Of a DNA stretch of 64,000 nt, positions 9,066-16,187 are shown in pieces. The stretch comes from an uncultured delta proteobacterium. GTDB taxonomy: Bacteria; Myxococcota; Myxococcia; SLRQ01. Below the pieces are notes generated by a model that saw nothing but the letters and a program-made list of their open reading frames with translations, was not told the DNA's origin and did not search any database. How positions within the stretch are numbered: the first letter of the stretch is position 1; the number at the start of each line of letters is the position of its first letter. Both the position numbers and the translations under genes were made by a program. The stretch lies in contig CAVSGM010000011.1 of NCBI GenBank assembly GCA_963727485.1, positions 768,001-832,000 on the forward strand, given 5' to 3'.

Positions 9066-9725
9066 CTACGGTTTGCGGGGGGCCTCGCCGTGGGCCGGCT
9101 GCCCGTGGCCCGTGCCGTGGCCCGTCCCCCCCGCGAGATCGAGGGTGGCCACCACCCGCCCCCCGTGGACCCGCACCGTGAACCGCCTCGCCTGCTGCCC
9201 CTGGGTGAGGGCCCGGCCCCAGACCGCGAGCTGGTAGCGGCCGTCGGGGAGCTCGGGGAGGCGGAAGCGCCCGTGGTCGTCGGTGAGGGTGAAGTAGGGG
9301 TTCTGGAGGACCACCACGTAGGCCTCCATGGTGGGGTGGAGGGAGCAGAGCTGGGTGTAGACGCCGAGCTTGGTGAAGGTGTAGCTGCGCCGCTGCCCCG
9401 GGGGCCAGTTGCCCAGGTTGTAGCCCTCATGGTCGGGGGAGAAGACGTTGTGGACCATGTCGTCGGAGTTGAGGAAGTCGACGGTGGTGCCCCGCACCAC
9501 CGGGAGGACCTTGGGTACGAAGTGCATGTGGCGCTGGTCCATCACCCGGTGCCGGGTGGGCGGGGTGAAGTGGCCGGGCGCCTTCACCACGTAGACCAGC
9601 AGGTTGTCGGCGTCGGCGACGCCCTCGACCTTCCCGGAGACGACGCTCAAACGAACGGCCGCCGCCCCCCCGAGGAGGGAGGCGGCGGCCCAGAAGATGG
9701 CCAGGCGGCGAAGCGCACGGCCCAT
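9066..9725 (-). CDS. Exported cupredoxin-like protein with C-terminal carboxypeptidase-regulatory-like beta domain (paralog 2)
   Basis: Signal-like N-terminus; FVPKVLPVVRGTTVDFLNSDDMVHNV and CSLHPTM supply H/C/H/M type-1 Cu ligands. Confidence 0.8.
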   Translation of the reverse strand: MGRALRRLAIFWAAASLLGGAAAVRLSVVSGKVEGVADADNLLVYVVKAPGHFTPPTRHRVMDQRHMHFVPKVLPVVRGTTVDFLNSDDMVHNVFSPDHEGYNLGNWPPGQRRSYTFTKLGVYTQLCSLHPTMEAYVVVLQNPYFTLTDDHGRFRLPELPDGRYQLAVWGRALTQGQQARRFTVRVHGGRVVATLDLAGGTGHGTGHGQPAHGEAPRKP

Positions 9726-9730
9726 GACTG

Positions 9731-12630: not shown

Positions 12631-13968
12631 CTAGTGCAGGCCGTACTTGGCCAGGCGGCGGTAGAGGGTCGCCGGATCCACCTCGAGCATGCGCGCGGCA
12701 CGCTCGCGGTTGCCTCCGGCGGCCCGGACCACGAAGGCGACGTGGCGCCGCTCGAAGTCCTCGACCGCGCGCTTGAGCGAGAGCGACGGCTCCTCCTCGG
12801 TGTCGAACTCCGAGGGGAGGTGCTCCACGGTGATGGGCCCGTTGCCGGCGAGGATGCAGGCGCGCTCGATGACGTTGGAGAGCTCGCGGACGTTGCCGGG
12901 CCAGGGGTAGCCGAGCAGCCGGCGCATCACCTCGTTCTCGATCGCCGGCGGCTTCTTGCCCTGGGCGGCCGCGTGCATCACCGCGAAGTGCTCCACCAGG
13001 GCCGGGATGTCCTCGGGCCGGGCGTTGAGCGCCGGGAGGGCGATGCGGAAGACGTTGAGCCGGAAGAAGAGGTCGCTGCGGAAGTGGCCGGCCTCGACCT
13101 CCTGCTGCAGGTCCTGGTTGGTGGCGGCGACCAGGCGGAAGTCGACCTTCACCGGCCGGTCGGCGCCTACCGGGAGCACCTCGTGGGACTCGAGGGCGCG
13201 CAACAGCTTGGCCTGGGTCTCCACCGGCATCTCGGCGATCTCGTCGAGGAACACGGTGCCGCCGCGGGCGGTGCGGAAGATGCCCTCGCGCGCCTGGTCG
13301 GCGCCGGTGAAGGCGCCCTTCTCGTGGCCGAAGAGCTGCGCCTCGATCATCTCCCGGGGCATGGCGGCCATGTTCACCGCCAAGAACTCCCGCTCCGAGT
13401 CCTGGGACCGCGCGTGGATCGCCCGGGCCACCAGCTCCTTGCCGGTCCCGGAGGCCCCGGTGACCAGGACCGTGGAGCGGGTGGGGGCGACCTTGTCGAC
13501 CAGGTCGAAGATCTGGCGCATCGCCGGGCCGTCGCCGACCATCCCCTCGTAGCCCTGGGTCAGGCGCAGGGCCTGGCGCAGGCGCACCACCTCGGCCTTC
13601 AGCGCCCGGTACTCGAGGAGGTTCTGGATCTTCTGCAGCAGGTCCTCGAAGACGATGGGCTTGAGCAGGTAGTCGTAGGCGCCGAAGCGCAGGGCCTCGA
13701 TGGCGGTCTCCACCGAGGCGTAGGCGGTGGTGATCAGCACCAGGGTCTCGGGCCGCTCGGCGATGAGGTGCTTGAGCAGGCCGATGCCGTCGAGGCGCGG
13801 CATCCGGATGTCGGTGAGCACCAGGTCGAAGTCCTGCTGCCGGGCCAGGTCCAGCGCCGCCTCGCCGTCCTCGGCGCCGGTGACCTCGTAGCCCGACCGC
13901 GAGAGGAACTCACAGAGGTTGATCCGGAGGATCTCCTCGTCCTCGGCGACCAGGATCCGATCGCTCAC
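12631..13968 (-). CDS. Sigma54-dependent NtrC-family response regulator (REC-AAA+-Fis HTH)
   Basis: GTG start; ILVAEDE, LTDIRMP, GASGTGKELVA, FGHEKGAFTGA, YPWPGNVREL, ATLYRRL. Confidence 0.95.
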   Translation of the reverse strand: MSDRILVAEDEEILRINLCEFLSRSGYEVTGAEDGEAALDLARQQDFDLVLTDIRMPRLDGIGLLKHLIAERPETLVLITTAYASVETAIEALRFGAYDYLLKPIVFEDLLQKIQNLLEYRALKAEVVRLRQALRLTQGYEGMVGDGPAMRQIFDLVDKVAPTRSTVLVTGASGTGKELVARAIHARSQDSEREFLAVNMAAMPREMIEAQLFGHEKGAFTGADQAREGIFRTARGGTVFLDEIAEMPVETQAKLLRALESHEVLPVGADRPVKVDFRLVAATNQDLQQEVEAGHFRSDLFFRLNVFRIALPALNARPEDIPALVEHFAVMHAAAQGKKPPAIENEVMRRLLGYPWPGNVRELSNVIERACILAGNGPITVEHLPSEFDTEEEPSLSLKRAVEDFERRHVAFVVRAAGGNRERAARMLEVDPATLYRRLAKYGLH

Positions 13969-16187
13969 GACACCGCCTCCGCCCGATGGCCGGTGCCCTC
14001 GTAGGGGAGCCGCACCGCGAACACCGTGCCCTCGGGCCCGGTCCGCTCCACCTCCAACCGTCCGTCCATGTCCTCGATGATACCGCGGCTGACGAAGAGC
14101 CCCAGGCCGGTGCCCCGACCGCTGGGCTTGGTGGTGAAGAAGGGCTCGAAGACCCGGCGCTGCACCGCCTCGGGGATCCCGGTGCCCGTGTCCCGGGCCC
14201 GGAGCACCACCAGGTCCCCCTCGAGGGTGGTGGTGAAGGTCAGGGTGCCGCCCTCGGACATGGCGTCGAGGGCGTTGATGCCGAGGTTGAGGAGCACCTG
14301 CACCAGGTGATCCTCCCGGGTGCGGATGCCCGGGAGGTGCTCGGCGAGGGCGGTCTCGATCTGGATGGTCCGGGCCCGCGGCTCGTGACGCAGGAGGCGG
14401 ACCACGTCCTCGACCACCTGGTTCGCCGACACCAGGGTGACCTCCTCGCGCTGGCGCCTTGCGAAGTCGACGATGTCGCGCAGCAGCCGGGAGATGCGCT
14501 CGACCTGCCGGCCCACGATGCCCAGGGTCTCCCGGGTGTGGGTCTCGTCGCCGCCCTCGGCGAGCTTCAGCTGGCTCTGGATGGCGGCCAGGGGGTTGCC
14601 GATCTCGTGGGCCACCCCGGCGGCCAGCAGGCCGAAGGCCGCCATCTTCTCCTGGTGCATCATCTGGGCCTGCACCTGCCGCTCGGCGGTGACCACCCGC
14701 GCGATCTCCACCACCGAGCCCACCTCGCCCGCGTGGTCGTGCACCGGGTAGGTCTCCACGTGGAAGATTTCGGTGCCGCCGAGGGTGTGCTGGGTCCGGT
14801 CCACCGAGACCGTCCGGCCGGTGGCCAGGGTCTGCTCGGCGGGGCACCCGGAGTGGTCGGCGGTGTCGAAGGCCTCGCAGCAGTGGGAGCCCACCACAGT
14901 GTCCCCGTGGAGGCGCCGGGCGGTGTCGTTGGCCTGGGTGACGACGAGATCGCGATCGTAGACCAGGACCCGGTAGTCGATGGAGTTGAGGAGCAGCTCG
15001 CTGAAGCGCCGGCTCTCCTCGAGGCTCCGGGTCCGCTCCTCGACCCGGTGCTCCAGCAGCCGGTAGGAGTCGGCGAGGGCCTCGCTCATCTCGTTGAAGG
15101 TCCGCGCCAGGTGGGCGACCTCCTTGGGGCCCTTGGGGGGCACCCGGGCGCCGAGGGCCCCGCCGGTGAGACGGGCGGCGGCGTCGGCCAGGGCCTCGAG
15201 GGGCCGCACCAGCCCCCGGGAGGTGAAGAACACCGCCAGGGTGAGGAGGATCGCCAGCGCGGTGCCCATGGCGACCGCCTGGGCCCGGATGTGGTGGAGG
15301 CTGGCCAGGGCCGCCGAGAGGGGCTCCTCGACCACCACCCCCGCGGGGATCCCCGAGAGGGGCGCGTAGGCGACGATGGCGTCGTCCCCGCCGGGGAGCT
15401 CCCAGGTCGCGGTGTGGGTCCCTCGACCGAGGCCGCCGTGGGCGAGGTCGAGGTGGTCCGGGGCGGTGCGGTCGTCGGCGAGGGAGGTGGCGAGGACCCG
15501 ACCGGCGTCGTCGACCAGGTAGAGGGCGGCGTGGCTGGTCCGCTCCCGGCCCACGTGGACCAGGGCGTCGTGGATGCGGAAGCGGAAGCGGCCGCAGAAG
15601 TAGCCGAGGAAGTGCCCGAGGCTGTCGTGGACCGGCGTGGTCACCGAGAGCACCGGCTCGTCGCCCTGGGAGGCGAAGCCGGGGAGGCTCCCGGCGTCGG
15701 GCCCGAGGGTGCGGCAGGCCGGGAGCGTCGAGCCCAGGGGCCGCTCCGGGTGGGAGGTGCCCATGACCGTCCGGTCCGGGGCCAGGACCAGGAACTCCCG
15801 GGCGTCGGCGTCCTCGGCCACCTTGGCCCGCAGGAGGCGCTCCAGGGCGTTCTCCACCGACTGGCGGGTCTCCTGGGTGGTCACGCCCTTGATGCTGCGC
15901 AGGAGGCCGAAGAGGTGCTCGTTGCCCGCCACCAGGGAGGAGACCAGGGCCCGCTTCGAGGCGACGAAGCCGCTGGACTCGGAGGCCGCCAGGGAGGCCA
16001 CGTTGCGCACGTTCCGGTCGGCGGTGGCGTGCACGTAGCGGCCGGTCTGGATGTAGCCCCAGAGGTTGGTGATGAGCAGGGGCCCGAGGGAGAAGATGAT
16101 GAAGAGGAGGAAGAGGCGCTGCGCCAGGCTCCGCTCGCGCGTGGGGCGGCCCTCCGTGCCCCCCGGCGCGGTGTCGTGCGCAGACAT
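13965..16187 (-). CDS. Membrane sensor histidine kinase (periplasmic sensor, HAMP, PAS, HisKA, HATPase)
   Basis: Two TM segments, HAMP (RPLEAL...EVAHLARTFNEM), AHEIGNPL, NALDAM, FEPFFTTK, GTGLGL; 4-bp overlap with the regulator. Confidence 0.93.
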   Translation of the reverse strand: MSAHDTAPGGTEGRPTRERSLAQRLFLLFIIFSLGPLLITNLWGYIQTGRYVHATADRNVRNVASLAASESSGFVASKRALVSSLVAGNEHLFGLLRSIKGVTTQETRQSVENALERLLRAKVAEDADAREFLVLAPDRTVMGTSHPERPLGSTLPACRTLGPDAGSLPGFASQGDEPVLSVTTPVHDSLGHFLGYFCGRFRFRIHDALVHVGRERTSHAALYLVDDAGRVLATSLADDRTAPDHLDLAHGGLGRGTHTATWELPGGDDAIVAYAPLSGIPAGVVVEEPLSAALASLHHIRAQAVAMGTALAILLTLAVFFTSRGLVRPLEALADAAARLTGGALGARVPPKGPKEVAHLARTFNEMSEALADSYRLLEHRVEERTRSLEESRRFSELLLNSIDYRVLVYDRDLVVTQANDTARRLHGDTVVGSHCCEAFDTADHSGCPAEQTLATGRTVSVDRTQHTLGGTEIFHVETYPVHDHAGEVGSVVEIARVVTAERQVQAQMMHQEKMAAFGLLAAGVAHEIGNPLAAIQSQLKLAEGGDETHTRETLGIVGRQVERISRLLRDIVDFARRQREEVTLVSANQVVEDVVRLLRHEPRARTIQIETALAEHLPGIRTREDHLVQVLLNLGINALDAMSEGGTLTFTTTLEGDLVVLRARDTGTGIPEAVQRRVFEPFFTTKPSGRGTGLGLFVSRGIIEDMDGRLEVERTGPEGTVFAVRLPYEGTGHRAEAVS

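Follow-up and report, generated by a model that had tools for sequence, protein, structure and literature searches.

The cyc2 gene serves as a marker of iron oxidation in metagenomes, and an open question is whether Cyc2 homologs outside the known iron oxidisers oxidise iron. The question is raised by a five-gene cassette in a 64,000-nucleotide stretch (the window; positions 768,001 to 832,000 of contig CAVSGM010000011.1, assembly GCA_963727485.1) of an uncultured member of the Myxococcota. The cassette encodes a Cyc2-family cytochrome-porin, two predicted blue-copper proteins (cupredoxins A and B) and a two-component system, and it probably forms an electron conduit across the outer membrane, from haem to periplasmic copper. 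That this conduit is an inducible inward inlet, leading from Fe(II) through haem and copper to the caa3 oxidase or the copper nitrite reductase (NirK) of the host, we hold to be about an even chance. As stated in the preliminary description of this DNA, five co-oriented genes lie beside a tRNA-Met gene, all on the minus strand and with their open reading frames (ORFs) present as described:

16187-13965, minus strand: sensor histidine kinase, 740 aa, with dCache_1, HAMP, PAS_4, HisKA and HATPase domains
13968-12631, minus strand: sigma-54 enhancer-binding response regulator (the activator), with receiver, AAA+ domain carrying GAFTGA, and Fis helix-turn-helix
11778-10381, minus strand: Cyc2-family monohaem cytochrome-porin, 465 aa, with terminal F and 16-strand barrel
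10330-9731, minus strand: cupredoxin A, 199 aa, with signal peptide and H...CxxHxxM
9725-9066, minus strand: cupredoxin B, 219 aa, with H...CxxHxxM and a His/Gly-rich tail

A Cyc2-family porin and two predicted blue-copper proteins

Cyc2 has been defined by the motif AXPXFAR[QK][TY], one CXXCH, a PXL motif, a signal peptide, a length of at least 365 aa and a 16-strand barrel resembling OprO/OprP (Keffer et al. 2021, PMC8406198). The window porin shows every sequence and structural feature of this definition that was checked. AIPAFARKY at residues 31-39, just before the haem motif, matches AXPXFAR[Q/K][T/Y]; CTTCH (43-47) is the single CXXCH and is followed four residues on by PKL (51-53); the 465 residues exceed the minimum; and a hydrophobic helix (8-24), with A-M-A before the motif, marks a signal peptide by inspection and in the structure model. 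The barrel of this model (alignment of 119 rows, predicted local distance difference test score, pLDDT, 88) comprises 16 strands, all from residue 106 onwards; the best structural match of the model is OprP (2o4v; Z 24.0, root-mean-square deviation, rmsd, 3.5, 317 aligned), and OprP/OprO are among its Foldseek matches. The Cyc2 signature and beta-barrel proposed earlier both gain support. Searches of Pfam, NCBIfam and PDB sequences gave no match to the porin, including no hit to a Cyc2 model there, and its matches in a protein atlas are unnamed clusters (29 of 30 without a common family, one with Porin_O_P on 20% of members).

Homologs of the porin number at least 1,234 among 8,000 scored candidates. 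In the 80 related loci analysed below, 78 relatives are full-length (two were dropped as partial); all 78 carry one CXXCH and 69 the strict motif, the misses being five with FARRY, one with PxI and three cut by extraction. Matches in a plasmid search (10 records) were confined to the N-terminal 35-45 residues, and a scan of metagenome contigs gave no confirmed relative. His143, His204 and His352 are nearly invariant in the alignment, and are candidates for a distal haem ligand or a metal site. Cyc2 falls into three clusters (PMC7029218), and a FARKY start, which is also found in Leptospirillum Cyt572 (PMC13741234), only hints at Cluster 3.

The earlier claim of complete type-1 copper ligands (His/Cys/His/Met) agrees with the predicted copper sites of both cupredoxins. 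Mature His68, Cys103, His106 and Met109 of cupredoxin A are invariant in 72 of 72 aligned rows (the two window proteins and 70 of 74 hits in relatives, leaving out two near-duplicates and two broken sequences), and CxxHxxM occurs in 73 of the 74 hits; the residue after the first His ligand is Asp in cupredoxin A and Asn in 73 of the 74. The model of cupredoxin A (pLDDT 96) contains an amicyanin/plastocyanin-like domain (residues 34-116; Z 13.3, rmsd 1.4 and 83 aligned against amicyanin 1aac) inserted in a transthyretin/CarboxypepD-like (carboxypeptidase-regulatory) sandwich. For cupredoxin B, profile alignment gives the same architecture and ligands (only A was folded). Equivalogs for amicyanin, plastocyanin and pseudoazurin score 17-22 bits, below NCBIfam cut-offs of 88-110, and the sandwich is a domain extra to them; rusticyanin was not among the listed hidden Markov model (HMM), PDB-sequence or fold matches, lists from which a matching family may be missing. 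'MauL-like' is a tentative label for the proteins. A complex prediction for Cyc2, haem and cupredoxin A scored 0.02, which is evidence neither way.

The cupredoxins had been called twins. They are two ligand-complete paralogs, but a general pairing does not hold, since they are only 44% identical, belong to different clades and have no tandem counterpart in any of the 80 related loci. Recent tandem duplication was rejected on the same identity and clade placement (quick tree only). In this tree cupredoxin B, on a long branch, groups with cupredoxins from loci carrying the same kinase and regulator, while A groups with three other paralogs of the host genome; these positions suggest that B probably arrived with the cassette and that A was recruited. 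The host genome holds seven clear matches of the two-domain cupredoxin family and one cyc2, and no cyc2 was seen in the four cupredoxin-paralog regions that were opened. Further members of the family were observed far from cyc2: a second tandem pair downstream of TonB-receptor-like and lipoprotein-like ORFs by inspection (L091:8225-9776), and a single copy (L090:8169-8783). A distant paralog (CDVHPWM; L093:8211-10652), directly 5' of a haem O synthase-like ORF and an SCO-family gene, is a possible oxidase assembly factor or oxidase donor.

Predicted regulation and integrity of the cassette

Control of the cassette by sigma-54, as suggested in the preliminary description, is supported by the motif evidence: an activator with GAFTGA, a predicted -24/-12 element, a predicted tandem enhancer, and rpoN in the genome. 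The GTG start of the activator overlaps the kinase stop, and the five genes are not contiguous, as an insertion sequence (IS) remnant absent from that description splits the activator from cyc2. The intervening features are:

11976-12630, minus strand: internally deleted IS1182-family element between activator and cyc2, with CTAG/CCAG flanks
11939-11952, minus strand: predicted enhancer (upstream activating sequence) site 1, palindrome TCGCA-N4-TGCGA
11907-11920, minus strand: predicted enhancer site 2, with one mismatch, 32 bp from site 1
11842-11827, minus strand: predicted sigma-54 -24/-12 promoter, with the cyc2 start about 50 nt downstream

Taken alone, the -24/-12 match (one mismatch) is weak, because although it is the only one in the 64-kb window, 18 of 100 shuffles also gave one. 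Among the upstream regions of relatives, however, the element occurs at no more than one mismatch in 11 of 75 (0.4 expected), and at two mismatches in seven of the nine loci with an orthologous regulator (0.4 expected; one of the seven matches lies inside coding sequence) versus 22 of 66 others (2.7 expected). The tandem palindromes lie 65-110 bp upstream of the -24/-12 element. At no more than one mismatch, the palindrome was found in seven of nine regulator-bearing loci (0.4 expected) versus 4 of 66 others (1.7 expected), and pairs of it in four of nine versus one of 66. The pair is thus a predicted enhancer that tracks with the regulator in relatives, and its combination with a -24/-12 pattern occurs once in the 5.55-Mb genome. 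No FNR/CRP-type box was present in the 75 upstream regions, and no sigma-70 promoter was found in the region. In the kinase, Cys158 and Cys198 (Cache) and Cys448-Pro449 (PAS) are invariant in nine of nine aligned orthologs.

Compared with a copy on contig C4 of the same genome, to which it is 91% identical, the IS1182-family element lacks about 980 bp. Its insertion point is the activator stop codon, leaving the cyc2 promoter intact, and the activator-IS and promoter-cyc2 junctions are each bridged by independent contigs, so neither join is an assembly artefact. Near-identical DNA was found in salt-marsh, sediment and soil sequencing runs (four studies), with no RNA runs among those listed. 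Strain variants from four runs (codon counts from 40 of 44 variants; about 24% synonymous sites) comprise seven synonymous and two non-synonymous codons in cyc2, 10 and nine in cupA, and three and five in cupB, a synonymous excess in cyc2 and cupA and less so in cupB. There were no indels, no copper ligand was altered, and all ORFs are intact.

Downstream, the cassette meets a tRNA gene:

8968-9017, no strand assigned: G+C-rich hairpin with arms of 22 nt, in the gap where tRNA-Met and cupredoxin B converge; likely a terminator
8894-8970, plus strand: tRNA-Met, converging with the five-gene cassette

A recent integrative island at tRNA-Met was considered and is not supported, because the 3' end of the tRNA is not repeated anywhere in the window and each of the five genes has a G+C content of 0.96-0.99 at third codon positions. 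The site is no more than variable: three same-family genomes share the order nuo-sodium:solute symporter-tRNA-Met, two of them continuing into unrelated, differing genes and one ending its contig there. In the window itself, positions ~400-8811 hold a partial nuo cluster (D, G, H and I-like by inspection), then a sodium:solute symporter-like gene and the tRNA. Elsewhere, at 21900-22010, a short tandem repeat of ~18 nt (DPEG-H/D-R units in one frame) lies inside an ORF resembling tetratricopeptide repeat proteins.

Neighbourhoods in relatives and respiration of the host

A neighbourhood scan confirmed 299 stretches; the analysis covered the 80 best loci, whose titles are mainly Myxococcota and Acidobacteriota. 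The expected co-occurrence of cyc2 and cupredoxin genes was upheld, with a cupredoxin in 72 of the 80 loci and directly adjoining cyc2 in 59. None of the refuting outcomes named in the preliminary description that can be checked by computation was observed. The cassette had also been described as self-contained, which is not supported: neither a quinone-linked nor a terminal enzyme is encoded in it, whereas a complex-III equivalent is found in 63 of the 80 loci, namely alternative complex III (ACIII; ActB-like genes) in 56 and a set of GltD-like, Rieske, cytochrome b and 8-haem proteins in seven. Neither type was present in the other 17, about ten of which end less than 3 kb downstream. Complex-III-free units of cyc2 and cupredoxin recur in six of the 80, each with a downstream flank of 3.6-8 kb; three of them lie beside a dihaem-like cytochrome gene, and one of the six, L077, has the gene order of the cassette (kinase-regulator-cyc2-cupredoxin). 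In the closest regulated relatives (L012, L016, L056, L062 and L068), ActA/ActB follow straight after the cupredoxin. The cassette seems to have arisen by trimming from the cyc2-kinase-regulator-cupredoxin-ACIII operon found in its relatives. The clade is patchily distributed: of 300 further genomes from the phylum, 24 carry it.

The seven loci with the Rieske/cytochrome b set represent a second operon type (L022, L029, L036, L041, L053, L063 and L089), in which cupredoxin-cyc2 is joined by a GltD-like NAD(P)H oxidoreductase, Rieske protein, cytochrome b and 8-haem cytochrome, possibly a bifurcating complex III. At L081:1589-4414, a cyc2-linked ActB with an N-terminal 4Fe-4S motif scores 197 bits on QrcB, versus 57 for the host ActB, and is possibly intermediate between Qrc and ACIII. 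In two other genomes (G019:C3:115-121k and G006:C3:376-380k), more distant Cyc2-like N-termini are found within ~2-4 kb of a CoxA-like gene; these represent a different Cyc2 type, which may be oxidase-linked.

The host genome is 93% complete. Its only actABC set found (C2:805-817k) lies beside caa3 genes and is 30-44% identical to the cyc2-linked type; no actA-F adjoins the cassette, which ends at tRNA-Met. The genome also encodes a bd-type oxidase subunit, NirK (over cut-off) and haem-c maturation and assembly genes, with only partial domain matches to NosZ and NrfA. An OmcA/MtrC-family decahaem over cut-off (L118; G000:C2:1339000-1353000) is accompanied by a porin-like ORF, a NapC-like protein and further multihaem ORFs (several CxxxCH), a cluster whose gene content makes it likely to be an outward porin-cytochrome wire; the MtrB/PioB family search gave no match anywhere, controls included, and is uninformative. 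Other redox modules observed in the host are a PhsA-like molybdoenzyme operon and a membrane module with multihaem and DsrO/DsrP-like proteins (L120:3581-8009 and L119:4883-9334, respectively). Among 18 close carriers, OmcA/MtrC is over cut-off in 10, and a CoxA-like gene is present in all 18, five over cut-off. The host is an apparent heterotroph.

Direction of electron flow

An inward route could run as follows. The kinase would sense a periplasmic or redox cue via its Cache and PAS domains and phosphorylate the activator, which, as the conserved motifs suggest, would bind the tandem TCGCA-N4-TGCGA sites and open the -24/-12 promoter for cyc2-cupA-cupB. By analogy with its family, Cyc2 would accept electrons singly from Fe(II) or some other reduced solute outside the cell, and cupredoxins A and B would ferry each one across the periplasm. 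The caa3 oxidase (with O2) or the copper nitrite reductase, both encoded elsewhere, would consume the electron and so provide supplementary energy for an apparent heterotroph. Cupredoxins with His/Cys/His/Met ligands have potentials near +250 to +370 mV, a range that electrons from Fe(II) reach downhill but that is too high for the reduction of Fe(III) oxides; caa3 oxidase and NirK accept electrons from small periplasmic carriers. Cyc2PV-1 has a potential of 208 mV, the neutral Fe(III)/Fe(II) couple lies at ~0 +/- 100 mV, and three of the three Cyc2-family proteins tested biochemically oxidise Fe(II) (PMC8406198). The inward direction is thus favoured on family precedent, potentials, the two downstream sinks, a separate outward system and the lack of complex III in the cassette.

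Several observations weigh against this. The partner in relatives is a complex-III equivalent; an oxidase subunit was seen in none of the 80 loci (within +/-8 kb, for caa3, bd and cox, with 13 of the 17 loci that have a complete ActF showing only 264-710 bp beyond it), and characterised ACIII runs from quinol to cupredoxin (PMC7439408). RuBisCO, the marker of carbon fixation that was searched for, was found neither in the host nor in the 18 close carriers, which leaves no evident use for uphill electron flow to NADH in them. Five further cupredoxin-family matches in the genome sit away from any cyc2, and the carrier is therefore not Cyc2-specific. If the porin belongs to Cluster 3, its function is the one called most uncertain by Keffer et al. 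(PMC8406198). Moreover, the enhancer motif was picked after viewing the very loci on which it was counted, and the nine include several closely related ones, so that the contrast with the 66 other loci is the real control.

Some of these points would suit a flow in the opposite direction, from quinol through ACIII (housekeeping here, co-encoded in relatives) and the cupredoxins to the Cyc2 haem and a high-potential extracellular acceptor such as Mn oxides, chelated Fe(III) or oxidised humics, with Cyc2 in the place held by an oxidase in ordinary ACIII operons. The ratio of complex III to oxidase among relatives is 63:0 (56 ACIII-like, seven Rieske/cytochrome b), ACIII is a proven menaquinol:auracyanin oxidoreductase (PMC7439408), RuBisCO is missing from all 18 carriers and OmcA/MtrC is frequent among them. 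We nevertheless consider an outward wire, the main rival reading, and with it Cyc2 as a substitute for the oxidase, rather unlikely, as the host already encodes a multihaem outward route, the cassette itself has no ACIII, and the operon of relatives can equally be read as a single copper hub supplied through two inlets, one for quinol and one for Fe(II). With a potential near +300 mV, a carrier would also be unable to reduce Fe(III) oxides at neutral pH, and the high QrcB score of one linked ActB points to Qrc, which runs inward. No outward-running Cyc2 came to light in the literature as far as the search extended.

Two further accounts dispense with respiration through the cassette. It could be a decaying remnant, with its ACIII half lost, an IS hit and no useful work left, and the continuation of its closest regulated relatives into ActA/ActB, the IS at the regulator stop, the long branch and non-synonymous changes of cupredoxin B, and the absence of the cassette from four of four same-family genomes searched (85-98% complete) fit with this. 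Yet the reading frames, ligands, promoter and both enhancer sites are intact, the ratios of synonymous to non-synonymous changes in cyc2 (7:2) and cupA (10:9) exceed what ~24% synonymous sites would give, and complex-III-free forms recur, which makes decay improbable. Still less probable is metal uptake or detoxification, in which porin and cupredoxins would oxidise or reduce Cu or Fe so that the metal can be imported or exported, and not for energy. Iron-uptake cupredoxin folds (FtrB and EfeO) are among the fold matches of cupredoxin A, cupredoxin B has its His-rich tail, and the porin offers a channel; but the ligand set is of the electron-transfer type, and the neighbours identified among gene clusters recurring in at least three loci are respiratory, with no permease, TonB receptor or copper ATPase seen in the 13 clusters scanned (not all). 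The Cu/Fe uptake system offered as an alternative in the preliminary description accordingly finds no recurring transporter or metal-uptake gene to support it.

Relation to known systems and meaning

The window porin shares its signal peptide, motifs, length and OprP-like barrel with the fused cytochrome-porins A. ferrooxidans Cyc2, Leptospirillum Cyt572 and Mariprofundus Cyc2PV-1, as these are described in PMC8406198 and PMC7029218, but its clade is a separate one, found in genomes that are labelled Myxococcota or Acidobacteriota and lack RuBisCO, and the protein is known here from sequence and model. Wide horizontal transfer of cyc2 (PMC12442345) and its presence in Myxococcota metagenome-assembled genomes (10.1101/2022.03.26.485925) have been reported. 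As in the Acidithiobacillus rus operon (cyc2-cyc1-cup-coxBACD-rus; PMC10654088), Cyc2 is co-encoded with periplasmic cupredoxins. In contrast to that operon, the cassette lacks cyc1 and coxBACD (cox genes being absent from all 80 related loci), its cupredoxins are amicyanin-like domains within a transthyretin-like sandwich, it has a dedicated sigma-54 two-component system, and its host is by its genes not an acidophilic autotroph. The relatives also resemble the Cyc2-Cyc1-ACIII model of neutrophilic iron oxidisers (PMC5566968) in linking cyc2, a soluble carrier and ACIII, and a blue-copper partner of ACIII is proven for auracyanin of Chloroflexota (PMC7439408). In those two systems the link, as presented in these sources, is genome co-occurrence or a photosynthetic cycle, whereas the relatives join the genes in one operon, of which the window lacks the ACIII part. 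No description of a cyc2-cupredoxin-ACIII operon or its regulator was found in literature searches (subscription journals and supplements not covered), although the Cyc2 reference tree on figshare may already include these proteins. New in the window are the ACIII-free form with two carriers, the enhancer sequence, and a host with candidates for both inlet and outlet.

More tentatively, the Cyc2 clade of heterotrophic myxobacteria and Acidobacteria might use the two-domain blue-copper protein as a plug-in hub, through which a porin-cytochrome is wired to different respiratory enzymes. The present host could then possibly be a single-cell iron redox cycler, passing electrons from Fe(II) to NirK or caa3 beside a separate Fe(III)-reducing wire, or else the bearer of the first outward Cyc2.

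From this clade come a possible periplasmic partner, a candidate regulator whose predicted binding site is defined, and a carrier in culture, Anaeromyxobacter terrae SG22 (L040), which makes both function and direction testable. If the flow is outward, cyc2 counts would overstate iron oxidation; if it is inward, heterotrophic myxobacteria in marsh and soil would contribute to Fe(II) oxidation.

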